NCBI GenBank assembly: GCA_024653795.1
Contig: JANLHY010000767.1
Coordinates: 1-35,845 of the forward strand
Source: Candidatus Brocadiaceae bacterium
GTDB lineage: Bacteria; Planctomycetota; Brocadiia; Brocadiales; Brocadiaceae
DNA: 35,845 nt
Direction: 5' to 3'
Part shown: one piece after another, positions 5,888 through 21,527 of the stretch
How positions within the stretch are numbered: the first letter of the stretch is position 1
Layout of the letters: each line of letters starts with the position of its first letter
Notes under the pieces: model-generated
Database searches by the model: none
The model's input: the letters and a program-made list of their open reading frames with translations, nothing else
Told to the model about the DNA's origin: nothing
Made by a program: the position numbers and the translations under genes

Positions 5888-6124
5888 ATGACTATAAGCG
5901 AATTTTTACAGTTAATGGATAACACACTCGTAGTGAATGAAAAACTTACACTGAATACAAAAAGAACCGATATTGAGGAGTGGGATTCAGTAGGGCAAAT
6001 TAGCATTTTATCGATGTTGAAAAATTTTTTTGGTGTTACACTGGAAATGGAGGAGCTAGTTACTTTGGAAACTATCCAGGATATTGTTAACATTTTAAGG
6101 TCAAGAAATATAAATCTGGATTAA
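5888..6124 (+). CDS. Acyl carrier protein
   Basis: 78 aa. Phosphopantetheine-attachment-like EEWDSVGQISIL (DS motif at helix 2). GAGGAA RBS. Confidence 0.75.
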   Translation: MTISEFLQLMDNTLVVNEKLTLNTKRTDIEEWDSVGQISILSMLKNFFGVTLEMEELVTLETIQDIVNILRSRNINLD

Positions 6125-6135
6125 TTGTATTTAAA

Positions 6136-7185
6136 ATGGCAACTTTAAGTCTTAATTGTGAAATATCAGATATTGCTTATTATTTGCCTTCAATGGTAAT
6201 AGATAATGCAGAGTTGGCTTCTCGATACAATGGATGGGATGAAAATAAAATATTTGAAAAAACTGGTATACGGAAAAGACACGTCGTTAATAGCAATGAG
6301 CATGTTTCAGATCTTGCAGTCAATGCAGCATTAAATTTATTTAAAAAAGGGTATATAAACCCTGTAGAAATAGAGACGCTAGTCTTATGTACACAAACTC
6401 CAGATTACGCTCTTCCGGGATCGTCTTATATAGTACATGAAAGGCTTGGTTTACCAAAAAGATGTATTACTTTTGACTTTAATCAGGGGTGTACGGGCTT
6501 TATTTATGGGCTTTTTATTGTAGGCAATATGATACATTCGGGCTGTTTGAAAAATGCCTTGCTAATTACTTCTGAGACATATTCAAGATGGTATCATCCT
6601 TTGGATAAAAGTGTTACTACCATATTTGGAGATGGCGCAGCGGCTATTTATATTCGTTCTGCAAAAGATACACCAGGAATAGGTCCTTTTATATTTGGAA
6701 CAGACGGCAAAGGTTTTAAGAACTTGACAGTACCATATAGTGGTTCACATAAATCGTCACATAAAAATGATGAATTAAAAGAGTTTATAGATGAAAGTGG
6801 AAATGTTAGGACACTAGCTAATTTATTTATGAATGGTCCAGAATTATTTCGTTTTGCTATTAGTACGGTTCCTTCTATGGTAGAAAATCTTTTGAGTATT
6901 TCTAAAGAGAGTATTGAGAAAATCGATAAATTTGTTTTTCACCAGGCGAATTCTTACATGTTAAAAAACATACAAAAAATATTGGATATACCAGACCATA
7001 AAATGATTTATGAAATCGAAAATATAGGAAATACTGTCTCCGCTTCTATTCCAATAGCTTTGAAGAGTGCTTATGATAAAGGCAATATATCAGTTGGAGA
7101 TAAACTATTATTAGCAGGATTTGGCGTGGGGTATTCATGGGCAGGAACTATTTTAACATGGAATCCAGCGGTATTAAGAGCATGA
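6136..7185 (+). CDS. 3-oxoacyl-ACP synthase III (FabH-like KAS III)
   Basis: Catalytic triad contexts NQGCTGFIYGL (Cys), FHQANSYML (His) and IGNTVSASIP (Asn). 349 aa. Confidence 0.85.
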   Translation: MATLSLNCEISDIAYYLPSMVIDNAELASRYNGWDENKIFEKTGIRKRHVVNSNEHVSDLAVNAALNLFKKGYINPVEIETLVLCTQTPDYALPGSSYIVHERLGLPKRCITFDFNQGCTGFIYGLFIVGNMIHSGCLKNALLITSETYSRWYHPLDKSVTTIFGDGAAAIYIRSAKDTPGIGPFIFGTDGKGFKNLTVPYSGSHKSSHKNDELKEFIDESGNVRTLANLFMNGPELFRFAISTVPSMVENLLSISKESIEKIDKFVFHQANSYMLKNIQKILDIPDHKMIYEIENIGNTVSASIPIALKSAYDKGNISVGDKLLLAGFGVGYSWAGTILTWNPAVLRA

Positions 7186-7931
7186 GATTTAAACATAAGA
7201 GAATAATTGTTACGGGAGCGAGTTCAGGCATTGGAAGAGCAATTTCAAAAAGACTGTCTGTTGAAGGCGCCGAGCTTTTAGTTATTGGAAGAAATGCTGA
7301 TCAGCTTAAAAATCTTTGTGAAGAAATTTCAACTGCCGGCGGATATGCAAAATTTTTAGTGTGTGATCTTTCAAAAGAAGAAAATAGAAAAACTCTTTGC
7401 GAATCGATATCTGAAATTTGGCATGATAAAATAGACATATTAATAAATGCTGCTGGCATTTATAGTATGGAAGCGATTCGTAATAACACCCCTGATTTAT
7501 GGTATCAGCTTATGGAAATTAATGTCATAGCGCCTGCAGATTTGCTAAGTAAATTAGTTCTTAAACTAGCTAAAGGGGCAGTTGTAGTTAATATCTCATC
7601 TGTAGCTGGAATTGTGGCCACCCCGGGAAGTTCGGTATATGCCTCAACCAAGGCTGCTATACTATCTTTTACGCGTTCTGCTGCAGCAGAATTAGCTAAA
7701 AGAGGAATCCGAGTTAATGCAATTTTACCGGGTATGGTTAAAACGCCTATGATGGAAACAATGTTTAGATTTTTTACAAAAGAGCAGCAAATAGAATTAG
7801 AGAAAAGACACCTGCTGGGATTTGGTACAGTTGAAGATATAGCTTCTGCAGTTTCATTTATTGCTTCGCATGAAGCTAAATGGATAACAGGATGCGCATT
7901 TGTTGTTGATGGCGGACTTTCGCTGTCATAA
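7182..7931 (+). CDS. SDR family oxidoreductase (FabG-like 3-oxoacyl reductase)
   Basis: TGASSGIGRAI cofactor motif, NISS, and YASTKAA (YxxxK). I chose the ATG at 7182 (ATGA overlap with the KAS III stop) over the track start at 7137, which would overlap 49 nt out of frame. Confidence 0.85.
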   Translation: MRFKHKRIIVTGASSGIGRAISKRLSVEGAELLVIGRNADQLKNLCEEISTAGGYAKFLVCDLSKEENRKTLCESISEIWHDKIDILINAAGIYSMEAIRNNTPDLWYQLMEINVIAPADLLSKLVLKLAKGAVVVNISSVAGIVATPGSSVYASTKAAILSFTRSAAAELAKRGIRVNAILPGMVKTPMMETMFRFFTKEQQIELEKRHLLGFGTVEDIASAVSFIASHEAKWITGCAFVVDGGLSLS

Positions 7932-7951
7932 TTGACAAGAGGATTGCACGA

Positions 7952-9094
7952 TTGATCTCCAAAGATATTATTAGTCCGCTCAGAGTAGAAGACTATGAGG
8001 CTGCTGCTGTTTTCCTTGAAAGGATTACCAATGAAGTGTTTAAGAAAGAGTTCTGGCTGGATCGTTTTGAGTACTGGTGGAATAGGAATCCTGCAATGAG
8101 TAAAGGAATTGACAGAGGATGGATTTTGCGCTGCAAAGATGGTGGAGTAGTGGGATTTGTGGGGAACATCCCTATTAGATATTATATAAAGGGACAGGAG
8201 AGAACTGCCTGTTGTATAACAAGTTGGTATGTTGGAGAGGAATACAGCAAAAGAAGCCTAGAGCTATTGATTCCTTTTATTAAGCAGAAGGTTCCCGCAT
8301 TATTATTGGATACTACTCCCATCGAAAAAGTCGTAAAGATACTGCTCCAACTCGGTTTTAGAAGTCTTGAAAAGAAATGGTTAAAGAGAGACGTTTTTTA
8401 TCCAACTGATATGGCTGAATTCTGGAACTTTCTTGCTGGGCGGTTTGGATCAAATAGAGTTATAACAGTTTTCTTTAAGTTAGCAGGACTGTTTGTAATT
8501 CCAGCGGTGAAGTTTTATCAGATAGTCTGCAAGTTTAGATTGCCTGCCATAAATAAAAAATACACATTTAGTGAAATCAAAAGATTTGATAAGTCATATG
8601 CATTATTGTGGGATAAACTGAAAGAAAAATATGACGTGCTTGCTGTGAGAAACGAGACGACGCTTAACTGGTTTTTTTTTGGATCAAACGATATTTCTTC
8701 CAGCAGGAAGGTAATAGAGTTTAGATGCGATGATGCATTGATAGGATATGTTGCTGTCAAGGAAATAAAACATAACTTGCATAATAGAATTTATTATTAT
8801 TTTGAAGTAGTAGATATGGTTATTCTCAACGGGGATGCTTTAGGCTACAATATTGCGATAGAGGGGCTTTTGTGGTTTGCAAAGAAAAACAAGAATAAAA
8901 TTATGCTTATTAAGCTGAATCCTTTTGATGAAAACATTGAAAATTTTTTATTTAAATTTGGATTTTTTTTGAGATTCGGAAAGTCAAGATTTTTATACAA
9001 GCATACAACAGAACATGAGTCTGCTATAGCAGACTATGCTTCTGACAGCTTTTATGCCACGCCGTTAGATGGGGATAGATGTTTTTTCCCGTAA
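7952..9094 (+). CDS. Large GNAT-like (two-domain) acyltransferase, putative
   Basis: 380 aa with a TTG start 9 nt after AAGAGG. The N-terminal region looks GNAT-fold-like, but the Q/RxxGxG/A motif is not clear. Architecture resembles the ORF at 15215. Assignment is weak. Confidence 0.4.
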   Translation: MISKDIISPLRVEDYEAAAVFLERITNEVFKKEFWLDRFEYWWNRNPAMSKGIDRGWILRCKDGGVVGFVGNIPIRYYIKGQERTACCITSWYVGEEYSKRSLELLIPFIKQKVPALLLDTTPIEKVVKILLQLGFRSLEKKWLKRDVFYPTDMAEFWNFLAGRFGSNRVITVFFKLAGLFVIPAVKFYQIVCKFRLPAINKKYTFSEIKRFDKSYALLWDKLKEKYDVLAVRNETTLNWFFFGSNDISSSRKVIEFRCDDALIGYVAVKEIKHNLHNRIYYYFEVVDMVILNGDALGYNIAIEGLLWFAKKNKNKIMLIKLNPFDENIENFLFKFGFFLRFGKSRFLYKHTTEHESAIADYASDSFYATPLDGDRCFFP

Positions 9095-10113
9095 AGATAA
9101 AAGCATATGTTAAAGAAAGGTTTGGACTCCCAGCAAGGAAGTTTTTAAAATTGTTCCTTAGCAATTCCGTAGGCTTGTTGTTTAGAATTGTTAATAATCT
9201 GTTTTTAGCGAAGACCCTGACAGTTTTTGTATACCATGATGTTTCAGATAATCCAAGTGAGTGTAGCCGTACCTATAATCTCAATGTTCCTCTTGAAGTT
9301 TTTAATTATCAGATTAATTTTATCAGGAAAAATTTTAATGTCATAAGTCCTGCTGATTTATTAGAAAGCAGAATTCCCTCAAAGGCTGCATTAATTACCT
9401 TTGATGATGGCTTCCAAAGTTATTTTAAAAATGCCCTGCCAATACTTGAAAAGCATAATGTCCCCTCAATAATATTTTTAAATATGGGACATATTAGAGG
9501 GACTGTTTTCTGGCCCGGACTTATAATTTATCTCTGTGAAAAAAGGAAGGATTTTAGAGAATATGTTAAAAATGCTATTCCTGTAAAGGATAATAAAATG
9601 AAACCGCTATTTCTCTATTGTAGTAGGAATCTTGTAGATTCGTATATTGAAAGGACAGGAGAGAGCTTTGAAGGAAATGTCGCGGAGTTCGTAGGAGAGA
9701 TCGCTACCGAAGAAGATTTGATCGGGGCCGCTGAAAATCCCATGGTCTTTTATGGGAATCATCTTTTAAATCATGATATCCCTGCATTAATGTCTGATGA
9801 GGAACTATTGAAATCTTATCTTCAAAACGCTGATTTTTTAAAAAGATATTTAAATTATAGAGATATGTTTTCTTTTCCGTTTGGACAGCCGGGAACTTGT
9901 TATAATGAGCCGCAGGTAAGACTGATTTTAGAAAGCGGAGCTAAAAAGGTTTTTAGTTCTACAGGGAGAATAAACCGGAATATATCATCATTATGTTTGG
10001 ATCGAATTGCTTTGACATCTTTTAATGAATCCCCTGCTAAAATATGGTTTCAAGTCTTCCGGAAATCATTCAGGAAGAGGCTTGGAATACTGAGCAAGGA
10101 ATTTAATGGGTAA
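9079..10113 (+). CDS. Polysaccharide deacetylase family protein (CE4 / NodB homology)
   Basis: ALITFDDGFQS (TFDDG motif 1) and GNHLLNHD (HxxxH-type motif). 344 aa. Confidence 0.75.
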   Translation: MFFPVKIKAYVKERFGLPARKFLKLFLSNSVGLLFRIVNNLFLAKTLTVFVYHDVSDNPSECSRTYNLNVPLEVFNYQINFIRKNFNVISPADLLESRIPSKAALITFDDGFQSYFKNALPILEKHNVPSIIFLNMGHIRGTVFWPGLIIYLCEKRKDFREYVKNAIPVKDNKMKPLFLYCSRNLVDSYIERTGESFEGNVAEFVGEIATEEDLIGAAENPMVFYGNHLLNHDIPALMSDEELLKSYLQNADFLKRYLNYRDMFSFPFGQPGTCYNEPQVRLILESGAKKVFSSTGRINRNISSLCLDRIALTSFNESPAKIWFQVFRKSFRKRLGILSKEFNG

Positions 10114-10870
10114 ACTGAAGGACAAATTAAGAAAAAAACAATTAAGTGTCGGTTCTTGGATGAGCCTTGGTCATCCTGCAATTGCCGAAATCATGGCAAA
10201 AGCTGGATTTGACTGGTTGGTTATTGATATGGAACATTCTGCTATTAGTGACGATCAATGTCAGGAACTTATAAGGGTTGTTGACCTTTGTGGAATATCT
10301 CCCATTGTTCGTGTTGGTGCAAACGACTCACTTTTAATCAAAAGGGCTATGGATGCAGGATCACATGGAGTCATAGTGCCAATGGTAAATAGTCGGGAAG
10401 ACGCTGAAAAAGTTGTTTCTGCAGTAAAATATCCTCCGTATGGAACGCGCGGTGTTGGTCTGTCACGCGCACAAGGCTACGGAACGTCGTTTAATGAATA
10501 TAAGAAATGGGTTGAAGAAGAAAGCGTCATAATAGTTCAAATCGAGCACATTCATGCTATAGAAAATCTTAAACAAATTTTAACTGTACAAGGGATTGAT
10601 GCATTTATTATAGGGCCTTATGATCTTTCAGGTTCTTTAGGTATTCCTGGGAATTTTGAAGATAAAAAAATGCTAAATGCGCTTGAAGAAGTAAAACGAG
10701 TGATCTCTGAAACCAATATCTCCGCAGGGTACCATGTTGTTCCTCCACAGCCAGAACTAGTTCAAGAGAAAATAAAAGAGGGTTATACTTTTATTGCTTA
10801 TAGTGTGGATTTTCTCTTTTTAGGAGAAAGTTGTCGTAACGGGCTTATGGAAATACAAGGTTTAAAATAA
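10106..10870 (+). CDS. HpcH/HpaI family class II (pyruvate-specific) aldolase
   Basis: LSVGSWMSLGHPAIAEIMAKAGFDWLVIDMEHS and VQIEHIHAIENL...IGPYDLS match the HpcH/HpaI aldolase TIM-barrel pattern. 254 aa. Confidence 0.85.
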   Translation: MGKLKDKLRKKQLSVGSWMSLGHPAIAEIMAKAGFDWLVIDMEHSAISDDQCQELIRVVDLCGISPIVRVGANDSLLIKRAMDAGSHGVIVPMVNSREDAEKVVSAVKYPPYGTRGVGLSRAQGYGTSFNEYKKWVEEESVIIVQIEHIHAIENLKQILTVQGIDAFIIGPYDLSGSLGIPGNFEDKKMLNALEEVKRVISETNISAGYHVVPPQPELVQEKIKEGYTFIAYSVDFLFLGESCRNGLMEIQGLK

Positions 10871-10942
10871 GTTCATACAAATAAAGTATAGAGCTATTTA
10901 GACTCTTATTTTATTATTTTTCATATTAAAACAAGAGTAAAG

Positions 10943-11983
10943 ATGAATAAAAAATTAAAAGTTGCTATTGCAGGACATGGAAAGATGGGCAAAATCAGAG
11001 CGGCATGTATAGAGGTGCATCCTGATTTGGAGCTTGTCGCTATTTGTGAAACCAACCCCCAAGATAATTCGTTCAGCATTCCAGTATGCCAGGATTATAA
11101 AATGCTTATGGAATATAGTCCAGATATTGTTTTTGCATGTACCCCTAATAAATACCTGCCAGAAATCGTTTCCTATTTTTTAAGCAATCAGGTGAATATT
11201 TTTTGTGAAAAGCCTCCTGGAAGAAGCAGGAAAGATGTTGAAATGATGCTTATGGCCGAAAAAAACAATCCTGCCGTTAAATTAAAGTTTGGTTTCAATC
11301 ATAGATATCATCAGGCAGTTCTTGATGCTAAATCTATAATTGACCAGGGACGCCTAGGCAAAATCCTCTGGTTAAGAGGGATTTATGGCAAGGCAGGAGG
11401 GAATCATTTTGAAGATGGCTGGAGAAATAAGAGAGAATTTTCTGGAGGGGGGGTATTAATAGACCAGGGAATTCATATGGTAGATTTATTCAGACTTTTT
11501 TGTGGTGAATTCGATGAGATAAAGTCTTTTGTTAATCAATCATACTGGCAAATGGAAGTGGAAGATAATGTTTTTGCTCTTCTTAGAAATAAACAAGGAC
11601 AGACTGCCATGCTGCATTCCTCTGCTACTCAATGGAAGCATAAGTTTTTACTGGATATATACCTGGAAAAAGGCTATATCACTATAACTGGGATATTATC
11701 TTCTTCCAGAACCTATGGTACGGAAACTTTGAAAATCGCAAGATGTGTTTATGATGAAGAAGGGTATCCTTTGCCAAATCCGGATGAGACAATAACTTAT
11801 TATGAAGATGACCACTCCTGGAAAATGGAAATTGACGAATTTGTTAACAGTATTACCAGGAATGTGCCTGTCCAAGTCGGCACCTGTTTGGAGGCATATA
11901 AAACAATGCTACTTATTGAAGAAATATACGCTGCAGATAAACAGGTAAATTTCACTAAAAGTTTTATTTTAAAGGAAAATTAA
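10943..11983 (+). CDS. Gfo/Idh/MocA family NAD(P)-dependent oxidoreductase
   Basis: N-terminal Rossmann KVAIAGHGKMGK, the EKP motif (FCEKPPG), and GFNHRYH. 346 aa. Confidence 0.85.
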   Translation: MNKKLKVAIAGHGKMGKIRAACIEVHPDLELVAICETNPQDNSFSIPVCQDYKMLMEYSPDIVFACTPNKYLPEIVSYFLSNQVNIFCEKPPGRSRKDVEMMLMAEKNNPAVKLKFGFNHRYHQAVLDAKSIIDQGRLGKILWLRGIYGKAGGNHFEDGWRNKREFSGGGVLIDQGIHMVDLFRLFCGEFDEIKSFVNQSYWQMEVEDNVFALLRNKQGQTAMLHSSATQWKHKFLLDIYLEKGYITITGILSSSRTYGTETLKIARCVYDEEGYPLPNPDETITYYEDDHSWKMEIDEFVNSITRNVPVQVGTCLEAYKTMLLIEEIYAADKQVNFTKSFILKEN

Positions 11984-11988
11984 TATCC

Positions 11989-12993
11989 ATGAGAAAAGTT
12001 GTTTTATTAAATGATTTAGTTACATCAGATATCACCTACGGCTATTTATATGAAGAATATAAAAGGCTCTTGGAAATTGATATTACGACTCACTTCATGG
12101 AGTCATCTTCTCTTGTAGATGTCGCCTGTCCCGGCTGCGGAAAGAAGGCAAATCAGGATATTTATAAAAAAATGAAAATGAACTTTAAGTTATGTTCTAA
12201 ATGTGGAACCTATTATGTCAGCCCAAGACCCGATCCGCAGTCATTGGAGAAATTTTATAGGCTTTCAAACGCATGTATATTTTGGCGCAAAGAAAGTCTC
12301 AATTTGCCCGAATCAAAATTAAACAATCTGTTTAGCCCGAGGATAAATTGGATATTAGAGCTTTCAGATGAATTTCTCCACGGTACATCACTTTTAATGG
12401 ACTTCGAGACAAAATACCCTTTTTTCATAAAACAGGTTCATAAACAAAAAATATTTAACTCTGTTATAACCTTCAAGCCTAAAGTATATGAGCAGAGTGC
12501 ACTATTACCAGATGGGATGTTAACAGAATACAATATTGAAAACTATTATGGTAGGACAAACGTAATAACAGCTTTTGAAAGTCTCGAAAGGATGTTTGAT
12601 CCTGGAGAGCTATTTTCGATTGCAAACAAGTGTTGTCCGCCTGGCGGCTTATTACTGATTACAACCGCGAGCGGTAGCGGATTTGAATACCAAGTTCTGG
12701 GTGAAAAGGCCCCCAATATTAATCCTATAAATCGAATGAATCTCTTATCCTTAGAAGTCCTGTCAGAGCGTGTTGAATCTGCTGGATTTGAAATTATTGA
12801 ATTGAGTACCCCCGGCAGACTGGATGTTGAAAGTGTCCGAAATGTGGTCAAAGAATCGGATGATGTGCAGATACATCCTTTCTGGAAGTATCTATTTAAA
12901 TATCGTACCGAAGAAACATGGCAAAGCTTGCAGGATTTTCTTCAGGTAAATCGGTTGAGTTCTCATATAAGGATTGCCGCACTAAAAAAATAG
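11989..12993 (+). CDS. Methyltransferase-like protein with an N-terminal CxxC...CxxC zinc ribbon; glycine-rich SAM motif I not evident
   Basis: CPGCGKK...CSKCGTYYVSPRP, and later AFESLERMFDPGELFSIANKCCPPGGLLLITT (class I MT motifs II/III-like). Where motif I is expected I read LLMDFETKY rather than DxGxG. Confidence 0.45.
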   Translation: MRKVVLLNDLVTSDITYGYLYEEYKRLLEIDITTHFMESSSLVDVACPGCGKKANQDIYKKMKMNFKLCSKCGTYYVSPRPDPQSLEKFYRLSNACIFWRKESLNLPESKLNNLFSPRINWILELSDEFLHGTSLLMDFETKYPFFIKQVHKQKIFNSVITFKPKVYEQSALLPDGMLTEYNIENYYGRTNVITAFESLERMFDPGELFSIANKCCPPGGLLLITTASGSGFEYQVLGEKAPNINPINRMNLLSLEVLSERVESAGFEIIELSTPGRLDVESVRNVVKESDDVQIHPFWKYLFKYRTEETWQSLQDFLQVNRLSSHIRIAALKK

Positions 12994-13143
12994 CCTTAAT
13001 TCTATCAAAATGTTAACGAGGCGGCACCTCAGGCCGATAAAATGAATATTTCAAACTTGACTCATTTGTAAAGATAAATTGCGTATAAAGTATTTAATGT
13101 GTTTGCGATTGTGCTTGAAAGCCCAAGGTTTAAGGAGGAGATA

Positions 13144-14100
13144 ATGATCGAAACTATAAATAAAAGAAAGAAATTAGCAGTTATGGCAGAGTATGTAGTT
13201 AGTCCGCCCTTTCCACGGGAGATTTTTATTGATCTCACTTCTTTCTGTAATCACGCATGTGTTTTCTGTTCTAATTCAAAATTGAAAAAGAGGCACACTA
13301 TGAAACCAGATATGGTAAAGCGGGTTTTACAGGAAGCGTATGAGAATGGAACGAGAGATGCTGGATTTTATGCAACAGGTGAGTCTTTTCTTGTTAATAA
13401 ATTGCATGAATATGTGGCTGAAGCCAAAAAAATCGGTTATGAATATCTTTTTATAACTACCAATGGAGCGCTTGCTACACCAGAACGGGCTAAACCTGTT
13501 TTGGATGCAGGGTTAAGCAGCATCAAATTCTCAATTAGTGCAGGCACACGAGAGAGCTATAAAAGAATCCATGGCAAAGACGATTTTGACAAGGTACTGC
13601 GAAATTTAAAATGGATTTCTGAATATCGGAAACAATCTGGTTTGGATTATCGGATTTATGTGACAATGGTATATACTGATTCAACGGAACAAGAGATTGA
13701 TTTAATTAGAGAAGTAGTACAACCTTATATTGATGAATGGGACCCTCACTTACTTACCAACCAATGTGGAAACAAATTCGATAATAATGAACTTGGGAAA
13801 ATCGAAGAATTAAATATCAGAGGACGAAGCAAGTCAAACATTTGTTTCCAACCATTTAAGGGTTTCACTGTTACCCCTGAGGGTTATGTTAGTGCCTGTG
13901 TTCTTGACTATCAAAAATATTTGATAGTCGGTGATTTAAACAAGACAACCTTAAAAGAAATTTGGACAAATAAAATTTATACTGTCTTTAGGGAACGACA
14001 CATAGAAAACAATATAAAAGGATTAATTTGCTATAACTGTATTAATAATACTGATGAAAATATAATACCGCTAATGCCTGAATATGCTGAGGCATTCTAA
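13144..14100 (+). CDS. Radical SAM protein with a C-terminal twitch/partial-SPASM cysteine cluster
   Basis: CNHACVFC (CxxxCxxC) near the N-terminus. C-terminal C-x12-G-x4-C (CFQPFKGFTVTPEGYVSAC) plus CYNC. The AAGGAGG RBS precedes the ATG at 13144; the track start at 13099 is a GTG without an RBS. Confidence 0.85.
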   Translation: MIETINKRKKLAVMAEYVVSPPFPREIFIDLTSFCNHACVFCSNSKLKKRHTMKPDMVKRVLQEAYENGTRDAGFYATGESFLVNKLHEYVAEAKKIGYEYLFITTNGALATPERAKPVLDAGLSSIKFSISAGTRESYKRIHGKDDFDKVLRNLKWISEYRKQSGLDYRIYVTMVYTDSTEQEIDLIREVVQPYIDEWDPHLLTNQCGNKFDNNELGKIEELNIRGRSKSNICFQPFKGFTVTPEGYVSACVLDYQKYLIVGDLNKTTLKEIWTNKIYTVFRERHIENNIKGLICYNCINNTDENIIPLMPEYAEAF

Positions 14101-14124
14101 AGTTAAAAACCACATTATGGAGAG

Positions 14125-15213
14125 ATGGAGATGAAAAAACATTTTAAGGGCCATATTAATAATTTAGTTCGATACCAAACTTCTTTAGGACGCGATTTAG
14201 ACAATGGATTGCGCTTAGACCGAAATGAGAAGATATCAGACTTTCCGCCTGAGGTAATCGCTGACATTTTCAACAAATTTAAGCCATATTCTTTAAGCGC
14301 TTCTCCTGAGACCGAGGCACTTTATCAAAAGATTGCAGGAAATTTAGGCATTCCGCAGGAGAAGATTTATATTACAGGCGGGATAACTGAAGGAATCAGA
14401 ATTCTGTTTGAATTGTTAACAAATCCGGGAGAAAATGTTATAGTGCTTGATCCTACTTATCCTATGTATTCAATTTATGCAAAGATACATCAAGTAGAAT
14501 ACAGGAAGTTCTGCTTTAAAGAAAATCTAAGTCCTGATTGGAATAGCTTATATCAAGGGATAGACGATAAAACAACAATGGTGATGATTCCGAATCCTAA
14601 TCTGCCGGTTGAATGCATGTTTAGTACAGAAGACATCCGTCGTATAGCTGAGAAATGCAGAGAGCATCAAGTAGTACTTGTCATTGACGAGGCGTATTAT
14701 TATTTTGGAGCACCATCAGTCCTTGAATTAATTGACGAGTATGACAATCTGGTTGTCATGCGAACATTCTCAAAGGCGTATGGACTGGCTGGAATCAGGT
14801 TAGGATTTATGATAAGTTCTGCTGAAAATATCCAGTATCTGTCAAAAACGAGGTCATTGGCTGAGTCCAATACACTGTCTATGCGTGTTGCTGAATACTT
14901 GTTAGATCATGTGGAATTGCGAGACGAGCATATCAAAGAAGTTAAAGAAGGTGGTCAGTATATTCAGGAAGAGTTAACAAAGCTGGGACTTAGATGGTTT
15001 GGCGGAAATGTCACAAACGGTATTTTGATTTTCTTAGAAAATGAAAAAGAAGCAAAAGACCTGGCTTTGTATTTAAAGGAGAAAAAGATTTATATAAGAG
15101 GGTCATTTGATCCACCTTTCAATGTGTGTGTTCGTGTGAGCATAGGACAGAAGAAAATAATGAAACTGTTCATTGAATCATTAAAGAATTGGTTAACACA
15201 AAAAAAGAAATAA
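14125..15213 (+). CDS. Class I/II PLP-dependent aminotransferase (HisC/histidinol-phosphate aminotransferase-like)
   Basis: PNPNLPV, DEAYYYF and FSKAYGLAGIRLGF (PLP lysine context). 362 aa. The ATG at 14131 is an alternative start. Confidence 0.85.
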   Translation: MEMKKHFKGHINNLVRYQTSLGRDLDNGLRLDRNEKISDFPPEVIADIFNKFKPYSLSASPETEALYQKIAGNLGIPQEKIYITGGITEGIRILFELLTNPGENVIVLDPTYPMYSIYAKIHQVEYRKFCFKENLSPDWNSLYQGIDDKTTMVMIPNPNLPVECMFSTEDIRRIAEKCREHQVVLVIDEAYYYFGAPSVLELIDEYDNLVVMRTFSKAYGLAGIRLGFMISSAENIQYLSKTRSLAESNTLSMRVAEYLLDHVELRDEHIKEVKEGGQYIQEELTKLGLRWFGGNVTNGILIFLENEKEAKDLALYLKEKKIYIRGSFDPPFNVCVRVSIGQKKIMKLFIESLKNWLTQKKK

Positions 15214-15214
15214 A

Positions 15215-16402
15215 TTGATTACTATACAACCATTCAGAAGCGAGTATTTAGCTTCAATCCTTAATTTGATTGAGAGGTCTGATTCGACTAATCGTTCCAT
15301 AGATACATGGTACTGGAATAATATGACTTCGGTTGTAGCATTTGATGATAACAAGCTTATTGGTGTGCTTCCACTTGAAAAACGTTTATTTTCTCTCGGA
15401 GGTGATAGATCCCTAAATATTCTTTGGGTTAGTGCTGCTCATGTAGAACCAGAGTATAGAAGTCAAGGGGTTGGAACAGCAATGGATAACAAGATTCAAG
15501 AATATTTCTTTCCAGATTTTAAGGCAGTATTTGTCTATCGTGGGGATGAAACAAGTAAGGCATATAGGTGGTATAATAAATTAGGTTATCATGAAATCTT
15601 ATCTGTTTTGTCATTTAAGAAGGATGTAAAGAGACTTGATGCAGCGATTGACTATATATTATTGTCAAACGAAGCGGAGATTAGACGGTGGGAAGATAAG
15701 CTGTTTGACTGTTTTAAACGCTACACTTGGTCATTGGGAGGTTTCCCCCTGAGACATCGCCGGTTCTGGTCAGATAAAATTAATGCTCATTATTACAAAG
15801 AGTTTTATACCTATAGCATATTGGCAATAACCAGTCAGGATAAAATATCAGGCTATGCATTTCTTGGCAAAACAGTTATGAAGGACGGAATTCCAAGAGT
15901 TGATATCCTTGAGTTTGTAGCACCTGATGAATCTGTTACTGGCATTAGAGATTGTCTTTATAATGCAATTATGAATTTTGTCTGTCAGCATGGATTAAAC
16001 GAGGTGCGCATTCAACTTTCTACTCAGGATCCACATTTACAATGGATAAAGTCATTGGGTTTTGTTAATCGCTGGAGATTTAATATAATGGGGAGACTTA
16101 TTGACCCTATCAGCTATTTTAGAGAATGTTTGTCGGAAAAAATAGATTTAGAGCGGGAATATCAGTTTATTATTCAAACACCAGCGCTTGGGGAGCATAC
16201 TATTGGTAAAGGTAAAAGCTCTATAAAATTATTTGCTCATGATAATCTGCTTAATGAAATTCTGTTGTGCCGAAGCAATATTAGCAATGCAGTTGAAGAA
16301 GGCAGGCTTGTGATTATCGATGGCGATAAAAATAATATAAAAGTCCTTGAAAGTCATTTCCCATTAAATAAGTGGCAATATTTTCATATAGATTACATAT
16401 AG
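15215..16402 (+). CDS. Large GNAT family acyltransferase (two-domain)
   Basis: VEPEYRSQGVGTAM (GNAT motif A, RxxGxG). 395 aa with a TTG start 2 nt after the upstream stop. Similar architecture to the ORF at 7952. Confidence 0.6.
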   Translation: MITIQPFRSEYLASILNLIERSDSTNRSIDTWYWNNMTSVVAFDDNKLIGVLPLEKRLFSLGGDRSLNILWVSAAHVEPEYRSQGVGTAMDNKIQEYFFPDFKAVFVYRGDETSKAYRWYNKLGYHEILSVLSFKKDVKRLDAAIDYILLSNEAEIRRWEDKLFDCFKRYTWSLGGFPLRHRRFWSDKINAHYYKEFYTYSILAITSQDKISGYAFLGKTVMKDGIPRVDILEFVAPDESVTGIRDCLYNAIMNFVCQHGLNEVRIQLSTQDPHLQWIKSLGFVNRWRFNIMGRLIDPISYFRECLSEKIDLEREYQFIIQTPALGEHTIGKGKSSIKLFAHDNLLNEILLCRSNISNAVEEGRLVIIDGDKNNIKVLESHFPLNKWQYFHIDYI

Positions 16403-16450
16403 TAAAAAGGTAGTTAATATCCGGCCTTGGACAAAATAAGGACTGTATAA

Positions 16451-16897
16451 ATGATTATTGACCAACTTAAGAATGCATCATTGTATTTTGATATAAGCAA
16501 GAACATTGGAGCTGCCCTCTGCTATCTTCGTGATACAGATCTGTTAAATATTAAACTGGGAAGATATGAGATTGATGGCTCAAATATCTATGCTATGATG
16601 CAGAAATATGAGACAAAGTCAAAAGAAAACGGGATTTGGGAGGCACATCGGCATTATATAGATGTCCAATATATCATTAAAGGTACTGAGCTTATCGGAT
16701 ATGCAAACATAGAGTATTTGAAAGCTGGCGAGTATGATGATGTTAAAGACATGCTTCCGCTTTATGGAGACGGAGTTTATTTTGAGGTCAATGCAGGAAC
16801 TTTTGTAATACTTATGCCTCAAGATGCCCATATGCCTGGTATTGCAGTGTCCACCACACAATCTGTCGAGAAAATCGTCTTAAAAGTTAGAGTTTAA
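16451..16897 (+). CDS. YhcH/YjgK/YiaL (DUF386) family protein, the family that includes the sialic-acid anomerase NanQ
   Basis: 148 aa with EAHRHYIDVQYIIKGTELIGY and the DAHMPG cupin-like motifs characteristic of this family. Confidence 0.8.
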   Translation: MIIDQLKNASLYFDISKNIGAALCYLRDTDLLNIKLGRYEIDGSNIYAMMQKYETKSKENGIWEAHRHYIDVQYIIKGTELIGYANIEYLKAGEYDDVKDMLPLYGDGVYFEVNAGTFVILMPQDAHMPGIAVSTTQSVEKIVLKVRV

Positions 16898-16998
16898 TAT
16901 AGAACAAAATACTCCGGATCTTTTGCACAAATTGTTGCCGGAAGAATAATGTGACAGTTAATTAAGGGTTAAAATTAAATTTTCAAAAGAGTATCATT

Positions 16999-17763
16999 AT
17001 GAAAGTTGTTGCTATCATACCCGCCAGAATGGGAAGCACACGATTTCATGGAAAACCATTAGCTAAAATTCATGGTCATTCTATGATTGAACATGTATAC
17101 CGCCGGGTATTATGCTCAAAATTGATCAATGAATTATATGTGGCTACCTGCGACAAAGAGATCGCTGATGAAGTAAAAAGGTTTAAAGGACGGGCAATTA
17201 TGACATCACCCCATCACTTGCGTGGAACAGATCGTGTTGCTGAGGCTATCGCAAAGATCGAAGCTGATATTGTAATTAATGTGCAAGGAGATGAGCCTAT
17301 GGTGGATCCAAATGTGTTGGATAAAGCTATTGCTTTCATAAACGAACAGGAAGATATCCAATGCGTGAACTTAATTTCACCTATTAATGAGTGGGATTGT
17401 TTTGTTAGTAAAGATGTAGTTAAGACAGTATTAGATAAAAATAACAAAGTGCTTTATTTTTCACGGCAGCCTATTCCTACCTGTAAACCGCAAAATTTTA
17501 AAAATGCATTTAAACAAATTGGAATTTATATTTTCCGCAAAGAATTTTTATTGCAATTTTCCCAGTGGCCAGAGACTTCGTTGGAACAGATGGAACAGGT
17601 AGATATGTTGAGAATCATTGAAAATGGTTTTCCCATATACACGTTCGAGTCTAATGATATGATTGGTGTGGACAAACCGGGAGAGGTGGCACTGGTTGAG
17701 CAAGCCTTGCTGAACGATCCTTTATATCAGAAACTTTTTACCACTAATTCTCCATCAGCCTGA
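16999..17763 (+). CDS. KdsB-family cytidylyltransferase (CMP-ulosonic acid synthetase)
   Basis: IIPARMGSTRFHGKPL, GTDRVAEA and NVQGDEP closely follow the 3-deoxy-manno-octulosonate cytidylyltransferase signature. 254 aa. Confidence 0.85.
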   Translation: MKVVAIIPARMGSTRFHGKPLAKIHGHSMIEHVYRRVLCSKLINELYVATCDKEIADEVKRFKGRAIMTSPHHLRGTDRVAEAIAKIEADIVINVQGDEPMVDPNVLDKAIAFINEQEDIQCVNLISPINEWDCFVSKDVVKTVLDKNNKVLYFSRQPIPTCKPQNFKNAFKQIGIYIFRKEFLLQFSQWPETSLEQMEQVDMLRIIENGFPIYTFESNDMIGVDKPGEVALVEQALLNDPLYQKLFTTNSPSA

Positions 17764-17766: not shown

Positions 17767-19536
17767 TTGAAGGTCACTTTTAAAGATCAGATTCCTGACA
17801 ATGTAAATATACCATTTGGAATTTATCAATATGACGAGTCGCTGAGACTGAATTCTAATTACATTGATATAAGAGGAATTGTCAGAGAAAAAAACTCGAC
17901 TTGGCTGGATGAAATCCATTCATCTTTTGCAAATGTTTCTTCGGCATTTTTGCGATATTCACGATGGTGGTGGTTAACCGGTATGTCAAGGTTGGATATC
18001 AGGCCATGGGGACAGGAAGGTATTTTCAAACCCCTTCTTTTTGCAAAGGCTGTTTTAGAATGGAGAAAGTATCATACAAATATTAAGGAAATTCTTCTAA
18101 TAGGATGTGATCCCTTGGTTGCTGTTTATTTGAAAGAGTTTGATAACACGTTGATTTTGGAAGGAGAGATAGAAATTCCCCCCCCCTTTTTTTTTATATT
18201 TCATGCATTCAAAAAGTCTATATGGGCTGTGCTTAGATTGCTTAAGGTAGCTTATAGTATCTGTATAAATCATATTTTCAAACCCTCCGGCAAGATAAAT
18301 TATAATGTAATTGTTTTATATGATCCTGTGCCGGATGTGCCTGTAAAATCCGGATATAGATATTATTATGGGTCTTTATTTGATTCAATAAATGATATAA
18401 AAATAGACTCAATAGGTTACGCTTGTACAGGATATACAGGTTTTAATTCAAAGCAAGAAAGAAGAGAGTTTTCTAAAAATAGTTCAGTGTTTTTTCTGCT
18501 GGATCATATCAACACAGTATATCTGATGCAAAGCATATTTATTAATATTTATATTATGTTGCTAACCTGGGTTATTGCATTTCGGAAGCTCCCATGCTCG
18601 ATCAAAGGGAGCAACTCTTTTTTGTTCTGGAAAAATTATCTTTTTCATGAGTTGGATAGAGTTCCATGTTTAAGTAATATGTGCAATTATATGGCGTTAA
18701 AATCCATTTTTAAACAATCATCTCAATGCAAACTGGTCATATACCTGTATGAAGAAAAAGGTTTAGAAAGAGCCATTTTGTTAGCTTGCAAAGAACATGG
18801 TATACGCTCTATAGGGTATACCCCTAACCCACAGTACCGTACTGCGCTGTCTATGCGTGATGACCCCCGGCCAGCATCACCTAAGCCGTCAACTTATGCT
18901 GTTTGTGGACCGGAATATGTTGATTTCTTTGTTTCGTGGGGTAAGAAAGACAATGATTCTATCAGTGTCTGGGGGAGTGAAAAATCTTCAAAAAAATCAT
19001 TCAAGACCTGTGGAATAAATCGTTCTCATCCGAAAATTCTATTTTTACTTAGTCACCCCAATGAATTGAAAACATTTCATTCATGGCTTCGCGCCAATAG
19101 TCGTATTTCATGTTCTGTTACGTATCTGGTTCGCAGTTATAAGGCGGTGAATTATAAAGAATTTGAAAAGGTATTAACCCCAATGATGAACGAATTCAAT
19201 TGTGTTATGGAAAGTCATGGTGACTTAAATGAAGATTTAGAACAGTGTGATTTAACTGTTTTTTGTGCCACCAGCGCTGGACTTGTGTCTGTTAATTATG
19301 GATACCTGTCAATCTATTTAGACTTAAATGATTTCCTTGAAATAAATCCATGCTTTGATAATTTAGATGTCATGCTATATTGCAAGTCTCCTGCAGAATT
19401 TGCCGTTCGGTTAAACGAAATATGCAATATGAGCGCTGATTCAATAATGGAATTATACCAAAGGCAACTATCTTTGGTTGATAGAATTTTCAGCCCGATT
19501 CAAACATCTCTTATAGAAAAAGAATTATTATGTTGA
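17767..19536 (+). CDS. Large protein of unknown function; candidate glycosyl/ulosonyl transferase by position
   Basis: 589-aa open frame with a TTG start 4 nt after the cytidylyltransferase stop. I recognised no motif. Contains the C9T9 tract. Confidence 0.5.
   Translation: MKVTFKDQIPDNVNIPFGIYQYDESLRLNSNYIDIRGIVREKNSTWLDEIHSSFANVSSAFLRYSRWWWLTGMSRLDIRPWGQEGIFKPLLFAKAVLEWRKYHTNIKEILLIGCDPLVAVYLKEFDNTLILEGEIEIPPPFFFIFHAFKKSIWAVLRLLKVAYSICINHIFKPSGKINYNVIVLYDPVPDVPVKSGYRYYYGSLFDSINDIKIDSIGYACTGYTGFNSKQERREFSKNSSVFFLLDHINTVYLMQSIFINIYIMLLTWVIAFRKLPCSIKGSNSFLFWKNYLFHELDRVPCLSNMCNYMALKSIFKQSSQCKLVIYLYEEKGLERAILLACKEHGIRSIGYTPNPQYRTALSMRDDPRPASPKPSTYAVCGPEYVDFFVSWGKKDNDSISVWGSEKSSKKSFKTCGINRSHPKILFLLSHPNELKTFHSWLRANSRISCSVTYLVRSYKAVNYKEFEKVLTPMMNEFNCVMESHGDLNEDLEQCDLTVFCATSAGLVSVNYGYLSIYLDLNDFLEINPCFDNLDVMLYCKSPAEFAVRLNEICNMSADSIMELYQRQLSLVDRIFSPIQTSLIEKELLC
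18178..18195 (+). repeat. Homopolymer pair C9 followed by T9, codon-aligned inside the CDS (encodes PPPFFF)
   Basis: Counted directly: C at 18178-18186 and T at 18187-18195. 18178 minus 17767 is 411, so the tract begins on a codon boundary. Confidence 0.95.
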
Positions 19537-20378
19537 GTTATTTGAAAAAAACTTCTGTAGCACAGCGAATGAAAAACACTCGCGCAGCAAGTTTAGTAAT
19601 GCAGTCTGTGGGAGATTGGCGATACCCATTTATGCTCGGTTCATGGTGGTTATCTAGTGTGTTAGTCCCTCGGCGAAAAATTTCAGTCGGAGACGTCTCA
19701 TTTACGCTTTCGTGTACGAATTGGATAACTCATTTTCGCTGGTATCTGTTTAAAAGGAAAGAGCCCGAAGTGCGTTATTATATTGATAAATATGTAAAGG
19801 ATGGTGATATATTTTTTGATATAGGAGCGAATGTTGGCGTATTTTCGATTTATACTGCCATTCGTTATCCTAATATTTCTATATATTGTTTTGAACCCGA
19901 GTATTCGAATTTAAATGCATTAAAAGAGAATATTGTTTGCAATAAGATGATGCACAAGGCTAATATATATAGTGTTGCTATAAGCAATTTTATTGGCTTC
20001 AGCAAGCTTCATCTACAAGATATTACAACAGGTTCTGCCTGCCATACCGAAAGCAGAAAACCCATTAATCTAACCCATGAAGGATATCCTGTAGTTTGGA
20101 CAGAAGGGATTGTTTCCGTGACTTTAGACTATTTGTGCGAGCAGTTAGGCGTCATCCCCAATGCAATAAAAATTGATACAGATGGCAATGAAGATAAGGT
20201 GCTTGAAGGCGCTGTTAAAACATTATCTAACAGCAATCTAAGGAGCTTGGTAATTGAAATGCCTCATGAAAATAAAGGCAAGAGCGATCTCTGTTACGAA
20301 ATATTGAAATCTGCAGGGTTATATTTAGCATGGTCGAATAGGGAAAAAACCCGCAATGAAATTTGGATACGACAGTAA
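19530..20378 (+). CDS. FkbM family methyltransferase
   Basis: FFDIGANVGVFSIY (SAM motif) and IKIDTDGNEDKVLEGA (the KIDxEGxE-type FkbM signature). 282 aa. Confidence 0.8.
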   Translation: MLSYLKKTSVAQRMKNTRAASLVMQSVGDWRYPFMLGSWWLSSVLVPRRKISVGDVSFTLSCTNWITHFRWYLFKRKEPEVRYYIDKYVKDGDIFFDIGANVGVFSIYTAIRYPNISIYCFEPEYSNLNALKENIVCNKMMHKANIYSVAISNFIGFSKLHLQDITTGSACHTESRKPINLTHEGYPVVWTEGIVSVTLDYLCEQLGVIPNAIKIDTDGNEDKVLEGAVKTLSNSNLRSLVIEMPHENKGKSDLCYEILKSAGLYLAWSNREKTRNEIWIRQ

Positions 20379-20645: not shown

Positions 20646-21527
20646 ATGAATGAACAAAAAATTATGAACAAAACAATGGACTTAGAAGATATTAATGGGT
20701 CTGATGAAGCTTTAGCAGTAGTTGACGAACTAAATAGTCTGATTAAGCAGATAAAGGCCAGAAATTTGAAGATCAGTTCTTGGTATGGAGTATTTAATTT
20801 AACTGGAGATGCCAATTCATGTGAGTGGATTAACCGCGGTTATGGTTATGAGGGTATTGAGGGAGCAATTGATGATAAAAATTTTTCATGGTTTTTGTAT
20901 TGGGAGATAGTATGGATTGTTCTAAATAATGAATTCTATCCAGAACAGAAGGTTTTGGATTTAGGTGGAAGTTCCTCATTATTTTCATATTACTTAGCAT
21001 CAAAGGGAGTAGATGTAACGACTATAGATCTTCAAAAAGAATTAGTCGATAACGCAAACTTTGTGGCGAAACAGATGGGATGGAATCTAAAAAATTATGT
21101 TATGAACATGAGGGAATTAAACTTCGATTCGAAATTCGACCATATAACCTCAATATGTGTTTATGAACATTTACCAATGTACGATAGAGTAACCATAAAT
21201 AAAAATATAGAAGACTTACTAGTCGAAAGAGGAAAATTTAGTATCACCTTCGATTATAGAAACCCGTCTAGGTTTGCACAGATAAATTCTCCAAAAGATA
21301 TTTATGAACAATTTGTAAAACCTTCGGGTCTGAAAATAAGAGGAAATAAAGATTTTTTAGACAATGGCAAGAACTATTTATTAAATCCATTCTATTACAA
21401 ATACAAAAGAAGATTATGGAAATATATAATAAGCTCCATTAGGAGAAGACATCTTAGTCCATTGGAGCTCTTTAGGATCAAAGAGTCTAATGATTATACA
21501 TTTGGTGCATTATTCCTAGAGAAATAA
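20646..21527 (+). CDS. Class I SAM-dependent methyltransferase
   Basis: KVLDLGGSSSLFSYYLASKGVDVTTIDL (motif I plus the acidic end of beta-2) and ICVYEHL. GGAGG RBS. 293 aa. Confidence 0.7.
   Translation: MNEQKIMNKTMDLEDINGSDEALAVVDELNSLIKQIKARNLKISSWYGVFNLTGDANSCEWINRGYGYEGIEGAIDDKNFSWFLYWEIVWIVLNNEFYPEQKVLDLGGSSSLFSYYLASKGVDVTTIDLQKELVDNANFVAKQMGWNLKNYVMNMRELNFDSKFDHITSICVYEHLPMYDRVTINKNIEDLLVERGKFSITFDYRNPSRFAQINSPKDIYEQFVKPSGLKIRGNKDFLDNGKNYLLNPFYYKYKRRLWKYIISSIRRRHLSPLELFRIKESNDYTFGALFLEK

Follow-up and report, generated by a model that had tools for sequence, protein, structure and literature searches.

A widespread gene module pairing a class II aldolase with a KdsB-type cytidylyltransferase: a candidate route to CMP-activated ulosonic acids

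The locus

The contig JANLHY010000767.1 (assembly GCA_024653795.1) of a Candidatus Brocadiaceae bacterium carries a surface-glycan gene cluster in which the gene of an HpcH/HpaI-family aldolase and that of a KdsB-type cytidylyltransferase stand among genes that recur together in many other genomes. To our knowledge, every CMP-activated ulosonic acid, whether 3-deoxy-D-manno-octulosonic acid (Kdo), a sialic, pseudaminic or legionaminic acid or one of the sugars related to them, comes from a phosphoenolpyruvate (PEP)-dependent synthase of the KdsA or NeuB type. We see about an even chance (roughly 0.5) that this whole 35.8-kb contig (35,845 nucleotides), called the window below, holds one variant (B) of a widespread module of six to eight genes which makes a CMP-2-ulosonic sugar acid with the aldolase in place of KdsA/NeuB.

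The DNA of the window matches groundwater metagenomes, its G+C content is low (0.31-0.43), and nearly every long open reading frame (ORF) from 397 to 34635 lies on the + strand. Pfam domains were sought in the + strand ORFs of at least 140 aa and, in addition, in five shorter ones, of which two lie on the - strand. All genes named in an initial annotation of this DNA were recovered in place, on the + strand and with strong family matches; three members of the module had escaped it, namely a Zn-ribbon methyltransferase, a D-2-hydroxyacid dehydrogenase (2HADH) encoded between the SIS isomerase and the inositol monophosphatase-type (IMPase) phosphatase, and a 589-aa protein of the glycosyltransferase-B (GT-B) type. 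The module genes of the window are the following.

10106-10870, + strand: class II HpcH/HpaI-family aldolase (PF03328, E 1.8e-37)
10943-11983, + strand: Gfo/Idh/MocA NAD(P) oxidoreductase (Pfam match; member of variants B and C)
11989-12993, + strand: Zn-ribbon plus class I S-adenosylmethionine (SAM) methyltransferase (PF13489, YnfU-type zinc ribbon)
16999-17763, + strand: KdsB/KpsU-type CMP-sugar-acid synthetase (CTP_transf_3; NF009905, 287 bits vs cutoff 255)
17767-19536, + strand: 589-aa GT-B-fold protein (outside any Pfam/NCBIfam family; AlphaFold2 and Foldseek)
25051-25728, + strand: GmhA-like SIS_2 sugar-phosphate isomerase (PF13580; TIGR00441 (gmhA) 95 bits, below cutoff)
25725-26660, + strand: 2HADH of NAD type, like phosphoglycerate dehydrogenase (PGDH) (PF02826, PF00389; TIGR01327 205 bits, below cutoff)
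26650-27405, + strand: IMPase/FBPase-family phosphatase (PF00459, E 3e-50)

The aldolase

The aldolase (129 bits on PF03328, gathering score 25) shares its Pfam family with HpaI, YfaU (RhmA), GarL and SwHKA, and the catalytic Arg and His and the metal ligands of these enzymes are all kept: D41, E43, H44, R69, E147 and D173 are invariant in 83 of 83 orthologues. The same holds for H210, Y172 and Y125, and the clade differs from the catabolic aldolases by an invariant Tyr in the GPxDL motif. The scores on the equivalog models are all far below the cutoffs (HpaI 187 vs 369 bits, RhmA 161 vs 441, GarL 156 vs 393), which sets the enzyme apart from the catabolic aldolases, and its setting is a biosynthetic one in glycan clusters rather than aromatic or sugar-acid catabolism. 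The closest solved structure is YfaU (2VWS), at 152 bits, with HpaI entries also near, whereas hundreds of metagenomic relatives from unrelated phyla score 370-543 bits (62-96% identity). Judged by sequence, the aldolase belongs to a distinct and very conserved clade of the HpcH/HpaI family and to none of the characterised equivalogs. An exact-sequence lookup of the window protein returned no record.

The invariant H210 aligns with L216 of YfaU and L212 of E. coli HpaI, a conserved leucine that lines the aldehyde/acceptor cleft (PMC8560999). In SwHKA, Phe210 in place of this leucine promotes the use of hydroxypyruvate as donor (PMC10099721); the equivalence of H210 and F210 follows from the wording of that paper together with the YfaU and HpaI alignments, not from a direct alignment with SwHKA. 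With His instead of this leucine, the clade would have a more polar pocket around donor C3 and the acceptor carbonyl. The initial annotation had taken the aldolase for the only enzyme of the window able to form C-C bonds; ketoacyl synthase (KAS) III (6136-7185) and the B12-dependent radical SAM methylases form them as well, and what stands is that the aldolase is the sole candidate for building the skeleton of a sugar acid.

A second and more divergent HpcH clade, 28-37% identical to the window aldolase (L134, L136, L142, L143, L152 and L161, in our numbering of related loci), is also linked to a KdsB-type gene and a Gfo/Idh/MocA gene, and mostly to a SIS gene too. The association of aldolase and KdsB may go back further, and reach more widely, than the clade covered by our sample.

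The cytidylyltransferase

Besides NF009905, the protein encoded at 16999-17763 passes the KdsB models NF003952 (267 vs 193 bits) and TIGR00466 (162 vs 155 bits), and with 32 bits on the PseF model (cutoff 205.7) it does not fall among the NeuA/PseF/LegF-type enzymes. Its top PDB matches are all KdsB or KpsU, the best being the capsule CMP-Kdo synthetase 1GQ9, and the motifs IIPAR, QGDEP and YFSR..IP are common to it and E. coli KdsB in the alignment; these are general family motifs, PMC3149649 naming no Kdo-contact residues. The enzyme is KdsB-type by sequence, and its substrate specificity is a prediction.

The synthase that would normally feed such an enzyme is missing from the window, as the initial annotation had said: neither Pfam nor tblastn in all six frames, for which E. 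coli KdsA and two NeuB proteins served as queries, gives a match. The E. coli KdsA query likewise finds nothing in 159 related loci, each fetched with up to 10 kb on either side of the matched gene. The case of a synthase lying just outside the window could be followed on one side only, the left flank being beyond the data: on a 75.8-kb sister contig (Ga0214473_10000254; loci L089 and L162), the 10 kb beyond the Wzy gene hold no synthase of the KdsA/NeuB type. What lies there are B12-radical SAM genes, glycosyltransferases, an HddC/GmhB-like fusion, an HddA-like kinase, an epimerase and an initiating phosphoglycosyl transferase.

Conservation of the gene neighbourhood

When each GTDB species was represented by one genome, at least 570 relatives of the aldolase came to light; the best 80 loci and four found earlier make up a set of 84, the ORFs of which were clustered all-against-all, with the window excluded from the family counts. 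The aldolase orthologues of this set are 51-88% identical, and the loci span about 20 bacterial phyla, the candidate phyla radiation (CPR) and archaea. Among the bacterial carriers are Omnitrophota, Nitrospirota, Acidobacteriota, Chloroflexota (Dehalococcoidia), Desulfobacterota, Planctomycetota, Bacillota, Bacteroidota, Pseudomonadota, Bdellovibrionota, Saccharibacteria and other CPR; the archaeal ones are Hadarchaeia, Methanoperedens, Methanomicrobiales, Micrarchaeota and Woesearchaeota.

Wherever the flanks reach far enough, a CTP_transf_3 gene stands about 3 kb or less from the aldolase gene: one was called in 78 of the 84 loci, and of 103 copies in all 79 are no farther away than this, often abutting the aldolase gene. 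Of the six loci without a called gene, four have the aldolase about 900 bp or less from the contig end, and in the remaining two (L032 and L047) tblastn finds a KdsB-type gene 0.7-1.7 kb downstream. Some 52 of the cytidylyltransferases near an aldolase are KdsB-type, 40-53% identical to that of the window; approximately 25 others are of a short type most like PseF (75-92 bits, below cutoff). Aldolase and cytidylyltransferase genes also adjoin each other, the stop codon of one often overlapping the start codon of the next, in Archaea, Saccharibacteria, Dehalococcoidia and Clostridia, groups that are not known to have lipopolysaccharide (LPS). Eleven loci with the short PseF-like type (L023 8591-9778, L013 8592-9989 and nine others) encode an unrelated protein of 395-465 aa that belongs to no Pfam or NCBIfam family and may be the counterpart of the GT-B transferase; its gene often separates those of cytidylyltransferase and aldolase (L013, L019, L023).

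After the cytidylyltransferase the most conserved partner is the 2-hydroxyacid dehydrogenase (57/84 loci), for which the scheme of the initial annotation had no place. Next in frequency come an extended short-chain dehydrogenase/reductase (SDR; "Epimerase", 44/84), the Zn-ribbon methyltransferase (35/84, usually adjoining the aldolase or the cytidylyltransferase), the Gfo/Idh/MocA oxidoreductase (33/84, and present in 24 of the 25 loci with SIS), a haloacid dehalogenase-type (HAD) phosphatase (27/84), SIS_2 (25/84), the 589-aa family (at least 24/84), a PF04199 hydrolase (21/84), B12-radical SAM enzymes (20/84), an AroB-like protein (14/84), IMPase (11/84) and FkbM (8/84). The setting is always one of flippases, glycosyltransferases and methyltransferases. 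In the loci L031, L048 and L051 the module is reduced to aldolase, cytidylyltransferase and extended SDR; since such minimal loci exist, the pair of aldolase and cytidylyltransferase forms the core of the module. That aldolase, KdsB-type cytidylyltransferase, Gfo/Idh/MocA enzyme, SIS isomerase and IMPase belong together, as had been proposed for the window, is borne out by this conservation of the neighbourhood across domains.

Module variants and phosphate handling

Three gene orders can be distinguished, in which bracketed members may be absent. Variant A reads aldolase, cytidylyltransferase, (methyltransferase), 2HADH, (PF04199), HAD phosphatase, extended SDR, 589-aa protein; variant B reads aldolase, (methyltransferase), cytidylyltransferase, Gfo/Idh/MocA, SIS, 2HADH, IMPase, 589-aa protein; variant C is B with a FabG-like SDR and an AroB-like gene instead of the IMPase. 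The window represents variant B split by two insertions, one of radical SAM/SPASM, HisC-like, GNAT and YhcH genes between the methyltransferase and the cytidylyltransferase, the other of methyltransferases and two B12-radical SAM genes between the 589-aa gene and SIS.

The HAD phosphatase, the IMPase and the AroB-like gene are mutually exclusive, with no overlap among the loci. The one AroB-like representative checked scores 440 bits on TIGR04425 (cutoff 400), a model named "AroB-related putative sugar phosphate phospholyase" (cyclizing) by NCBI and flagged by its curators as a hypothetical equivalog, and 289 bits on the true aroB model. The natural substrate of AroB, 3-deoxy-D-arabino-heptulosonate 7-phosphate (DAHP), is a 3-deoxy-2-ulosonate omega-phosphate, the class of product expected from the aldolase. 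Three alternative enzymes for the disposal of phosphate, one of them related to an enzyme acting on DAHP, therefore suggest a 2-ulosonate omega-phosphate intermediate, and this exclusivity is the strongest indirect pointer to a KdsC-like step and to an aldolase product of the Kdo 8-phosphate/DAHP class. The KdsC-like role foreseen for the IMPase agrees with its interchangeability with the HAD phosphatase or the AroB-like phospholyase. All 14 AroB-like loci (e.g., L013 13516-14598) also hold a FabG-like SDR, directly upstream in the orders inspected.

The IMPase also matches the HisN histidinol-phosphatase model (103 bits), and one may speculate that it and the HisC-like enzyme of the window would fit an amination next to a phosphate ester. 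The relatives of GmhA and AroB hint at seven-carbon phosphates, and the KdsB-likeness of the cytidylyltransferase hints at an eight-carbon, Kdo-sized sugar.

The isomerase and the dehydrogenase

The isomerase had been cast in the role of KdsD; it is a GmhA-like SIS_2 protein without a CBS domain, its best PDB matches are phosphoheptose isomerases, and it is not KdsD-like. In the sister cluster, L162 17226-19495 encodes an NTP_transferase-HAD fusion (HddC/GmhB-like) and a GHMP kinase (HddA-like), together three of the four activities of GDP-glycero-manno-heptose synthesis. Over the 21 kb fetched from that cluster, no GmhA-like SIS_2 gene besides the one of the module is present, and beside the HddA/HddC/GmhB-like genes this suggests that the module isomerase may be a true sedoheptulose 7-phosphate isomerase.

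The 2HADH has short PGDHs as its best PDB matches and carries the Asp of NAD-specific enzymes. Its family has an invariant Gly at what we take to be the position of R54 of human PHGDH, which argues against 3-phosphoglycerate as the substrate and does not by itself identify the substrate.

Overlaps join the SIS, 2HADH and IMPase genes, and a further one links SIS to the B12-radical SAM gene upstream. The G+C content of this block (25001-27000) is 0.42-0.43, vs 0.31-0.39 elsewhere on the contig; the block may have been acquired separately or be under a different constraint.

The 589-aa GT-B protein

The 589-aa protein has no family match in Pfam or NCBIfam. Its AlphaFold2 model (predicted local distance difference test, pLDDT, 90.7; predicted template modelling score, pTM, 0.90) shows two Rossmann-like domains with an interdomain cleft, i.e., a GT-B architecture, and Foldseek matches it with probability 1.0 to BshA, MshA, OtsA, PglA and TagF, at TM-scores of only 0.3-0.6. 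The family comprises 196 representative clusters at E<=1e-30, a number that rises to 661 at E<=1e-10. In a reciprocal search starting from this family, 22 of 25 metagenome loci of at least 12 kb carry the aldolase and a KdsB-type gene, and none of the loci of this sample holds a KdsA; the linkage thus holds from both directions. On the strength of the model and this linkage, the protein is likely a dedicated transferase for the CMP-sugar.

Lineage-specific and flanking genes

The remaining genes of the window are as follows.

2508-4403, + strand: PFTS-motif polysaccharide protein (TIGR04417, 125 bits vs cutoff 100)
4400-5875, + strand: Wzx-type flippase (PF13440, PF01943)
5888-6124, + strand: acyl carrier protein (ACP; upstream acyl-supply/modification group)
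6136-7185, + strand: FabH-like KAS III (same group)
7137-7931, + strand: FabG-like SDR (same group)
7952-9094, + strand: 380-aa protein, no family match (conserved in L001, 56% identity)
9079-10113, + strand: CE4 deacetylase-like protein (PF01522, 37.9 bits; the weakest family call)
13099-14100, + strand: radical SAM/SPASM enzyme (lineage-specific tailoring block)
14125-15213, + strand: HisC-like class I/II aminotransferase (TIGR01141, 227 bits, below cutoff 277)
15215-16402, + strand: GNAT-domain protein (lineage-specific tailoring block)
16451-16897, + strand: YhcH/DUF386, NanQ-like (PF04074, E 8e-41; NanQ model 94 bits vs cutoff 160)
19530-20378, + strand: FkbM methyltransferase (methylation block)
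20646-21527, + strand: class I methyltransferase (methylation block)
21676-23175 and 23586-25058, + strand: two B12-binding radical SAM enzymes (the second overlaps the SIS gene start)
27630-28790, + strand: GT2 glycosyltransferase
28754-33255, + strand: three further B12-radical SAM enzymes
33259-34635, + strand: Wzy-type polymerase/ligase

The arrangement of the window is kept in L005 (a metagenome-assembled genome of Pseudobdellovibrionaceae, 66-82% identity), in L001, in L087, whose eight module proteins are 66-96% identical to those of the window, and on the 75.8-kb sister contig. The tailoring block at 13099-16402 is common, among the 84 loci, only to the closest relative L005, and the order of the acyl-supply/modification genes at 5888-10113 recurs in L001. 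The CE4, ACP/FabH/FabG, radical SAM/SPASM, HisC-like and GNAT genes were found only in close relatives of the window, and YhcH, which had been cited as evidence for the pathway, occurs elsewhere only in one of the 84 loci (L059) and in the sister cluster, so that it is no part of the core. The initial annotation had seen in the oxidoreductase, the aminotransferase and the acyltransferases enough for a sequence of oxidation, transamination and N-acylation; with CE4, radical SAM/SPASM, HisC-like and GNAT genes confined to the lineage of the window (L001, L005), such a sequence amounts to a local elaboration and not to the logic of the module. These lineage-specific genes would elaborate the sugar of the module or a neighbouring sugar and are not evidence for the core pathway.

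Five B12-radical SAM genes stand beside the single radical SAM enzyme noted initially, and the recurrence of such genes in other loci suggests C-methylation of the sugar or of its acyl groups. The best models for these five paralogues are BchE, HpnJ and PhpK-like, all far below their cutoffs. Over an N-terminal stretch two of them (21676-23175 and 28754-30271) are almost identical, which suggests a recent duplication. Phosphonate biosynthesis, suggested by the PhpK-like B12-radical SAM enzymes, the PGDH homologue and the CMP chemistry, was considered and rejected, as no PEP_mutase/ICL-family match was found in the window and the PhpK models give 172 and 196 bits, vs cutoffs of 600 and 575.

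The 631-aa PFTS-motif protein (TIGR04417/PF27878) adjoins the Wzx flippase and has counterparts in L001 (2454-4376) and L079. At the start of the glycan cluster, 696-1578 holds two overlapping genes for an MNT-type nucleotidyltransferase (PF18765/PF01909) and a HepT-like HEPN RNase, a typical type VII toxin-antitoxin pair, and at the contig end two small - strand ORFs (35106-35743) have no family match.

Proposed pathway and alternatives

The module is real in its gene content, its conserved linkage and its pattern of mutually exclusive phosphate-handling genes, and it is probably a new route to a CMP-ulosonic acid, of which we infer every chemical step, the length of the sugar chain and the donor. 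In the scheme that we favor, the GmhA-like isomerase would convert a ketose phosphate to an aldose phosphate, and the aldolase would add the Mg- or Mn-bound enolate of a 2-oxo acid, either pyruvate or hydroxypyruvate from the 2HADH, to the aldehyde, giving a 2-ulosonate omega-phosphate. The phosphate would be removed by the IMPase, or in other lineages by the HAD phosphatase or the AroB-like phospholyase; the KdsB-type enzyme would then form the CMP-sugar, and the 589-aa GT-B protein would pass the sugar on to the glycan. Tailoring of the sugar could fall to the Gfo/Idh/MocA enzyme and the methyltransferases; in this lineage, the HisC-like, GNAT, FabH/ACP, radical SAM/SPASM and B12-radical SAM proteins may add amino, acyl and methyl groups to it. 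That the 2HADH supplies hydroxypyruvate is a conjecture, made because the enzyme resembles PGDH and glycerate dehydrogenase, is of the NAD type and lacks the phosphate-site Arg of PHGDH, and because its gene often adjoins that of the aldolase, whose donor/acceptor pocket is altered; with this donor, a 3-hydroxylated ulosonic acid would result.

Several points weigh against this scheme. The Gfo/Idh/MocA enzyme has no assigned step in it and the role of the 2HADH, a member of the module in so many loci, is conjectural; the position of the 2HADH gene, directly before the phosphatase or AroB-like gene, fits a 2-keto acid phosphate made by the dehydrogenase equally well. The reactions of class II pyruvate aldolases are readily reversible, and no known glycan structure can as yet be assigned to the module. 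About one fifth of the loci (18-19 of 84, by tblastn with two NeuB queries) have NeuB within 10 kb of the aldolase, and 6 of the 16 of these that were clustered show a single cytidylyltransferase in the fetched stretch. Finally, the rest of the genome lies outside the window, and the host, if a diderm like the Bdellovibrionota, will have a housekeeping Kdo pathway elsewhere.

The best of the alternatives, which we nevertheless hold to be unlikely, is an oxidative route to an ulosonic acid without C-C bond formation. The aldose phosphate made by SIS would be oxidized at C1 (by the Gfo/Idh/MocA enzyme or, in variant A, by the extended SDR with the PF04199 protein as lactonase) to an aldonate phosphate and at C2 by the 2HADH to a 2-keto-aldonate phosphate, which would be dephosphorylated and activated with CMP; the aldolase would serve only to epimerize C3/C4, by enolisation or by retro-aldol and re-aldol reaction, or to exchange the aldehyde part of a 3-hydroxy-2-oxo acid. 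Such a route finds work for all but one of the six cassette genes, whichever of the three variants is considered, and accounts for the accessory genes and their order, including the 2HADH followed by IMPase, HAD or AroB-like genes, better than our scheme does. It is also in keeping with the largely alternative occurrence of Gfo/Idh/MocA plus SIS on the one hand and extended SDR plus cyclase on the other (Gfo/Idh/MocA and the SDR occur together in 9 loci, vs 34 and 44 separately), with the seven-carbon phosphates to which the GmhA-like isomerase and the AroB-like enzyme both point, and with a 2HADH that has the NAD-type Asp and lacks the phosphate-site Arg. However, it leaves without a clear role the aldolase, which together with the cytidylyltransferase forms the universal and best-conserved pair, and it cannot explain the minimal loci, which have no dehydrogenase, isomerase or phosphatase. 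A cassette without the aldolase was not found in the reciprocal sample, and no HpcH aldolase is known to act as a biosynthetic epimerase.

Somewhat less probable again is that the cytidylyltransferase activates a canonical Kdo or nonulosonic acid from a KdsA or NeuB encoded elsewhere, while aldolase, dehydrogenase and phosphatase serve the same glycan in another way, for instance by providing a substituent of glycerate or lactate type, or recycle sugar acids. The curated KdsB models passed by the enzyme would agree with this, as would the NeuB-bearing loci with one cytidylyltransferase and the fact that the window shows one contig of this uncultured and probably diderm organism, the rest of the genome being outside the data. 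Most loci with NeuB, though, hold a second, PseF/NeuA-type cytidylyltransferase beside it (e.g., L024), KdsA was never found near the module, and the aldolase-cytidylyltransferase adjacency is kept in groups not known to have LPS, the genomes of which were not searched for kdsA.

That the AroB-like variant, and perhaps others, makes an acid with a carbocyclic ring, like quinate or a cyclitol, or some other CMP conjugate of non-glycosyl type, transferred by the GT-B protein as a phosphodiester or ester, is very improbable: the true-aroB score and the putative cyclising activity in the NCBI name of the AroB-like protein, as well as the TagF-type phosphotransferases among the Foldseek matches, would suit it, but the window holds the IMPase and not the AroB-like gene, the three phosphate-handling options look interchangeable in an otherwise constant module, and all characterised CTP_transf_3 members that we know of activate the anomeric hydroxyl of an ulosonic acid.

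Relation to known systems

The proposed aldolase route resembles the CMP-Kdo pathway (KdsD, KdsA, KdsC and KdsB) in its sequence of isomerase, condensation to a 2-ulosonate phosphate, phosphatase, KdsB-type activation and GT-B transferase. It differs in nearly every enzyme: the window has no KdsA (DAHP_synth_1), in whose place a class II HpcH aldolase would use the enolate of a 2-oxo acid and not PEP; the isomerase of the window is a GmhA-like SIS_2 protein without CBS, vs SIS plus CBS in KdsD; and the phosphatase is of the IMPase type (HAD or AroB-like elsewhere), vs the HAD-IIIA KdsC. The module furthermore adds the 2HADH, the Gfo/Idh/MocA enzyme and methyltransferases, and it occurs in archaea and monoderm bacteria.

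With the nonulosonic acid pathways (NeuB/PseI/LegI with NeuA/PseF/LegF) the module would share a CMP-activated alpha-keto sugar acid destined for surface glycans, and it shares the clustering with aminotransferases, N-acyltransferases and methyltransferases, the two systems often being neighbours. Unlike these pathways, the window has no NeuB-family synthase (PF03102), its cytidylyltransferase is KdsB-type and its condensing enzyme is of an unrelated fold family. An aminated, Kdo-like product, such as arises in the Kdo8N pathway from Kdo by the action of KdnB, an Fe-alcohol dehydrogenase, and the aminotransferase KdnA, is possible in this lineage. The likeness to Kdo8N loci that had been entertained does not extend to the genes: no Fe-alcohol dehydrogenase (KdnB) domain was found in any window ORF scanned, for which reason the Kdo8N pathway itself was rejected; the aminotransferase is HisC-like and confined to the closest relatives of the window. 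A full-text search, which leaves most subscription journals outside its reach, found no literature that links an HpcH aldolase to a CMP-sugar or describes the module.

Significance

More tentatively than for the window itself, we propose a third kind of ulosonic-acid synthase, of separate evolutionary origin: a class II HpcH aldolase that takes pyruvate or hydroxypyruvate as donor and underlies a chemically undescribed CMP-sugar acid which, with a Pfam-less GT-B transferase family of its own, decorates the surfaces of many bacterial phyla, CPR and archaea. This sugar acid is possibly a heptulosonic or a 3-hydroxylated ulosonic acid, and often heavily methylated. Genome mining for CMP-ulosonic acids relies on markers of the KdsA/NeuB type, and if the proposal is true, present surveys overlook an entire class of surface sugar acids. 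The module is widely distributed and experimentally tractable, some cassettes being small enough for reconstitution, such as the six genes of L009 (cytidylyltransferase, aldolase, 2HADH, SIS, IMPase and Gfo/Idh/MocA) or the seven contiguous module genes plus the 589-aa transferase of the cultivable Syntrophomonas wolfei subsp. methylbutyratica JCM 14075 (L081). Should the proposal hold, a natural biosynthetic class II aldolase would become available for biocatalysis, a sizeable orphan GT-B family would gain a function, and the presence of KdsB-like genes in archaea, CPR and monoderm bacteria would be explained.

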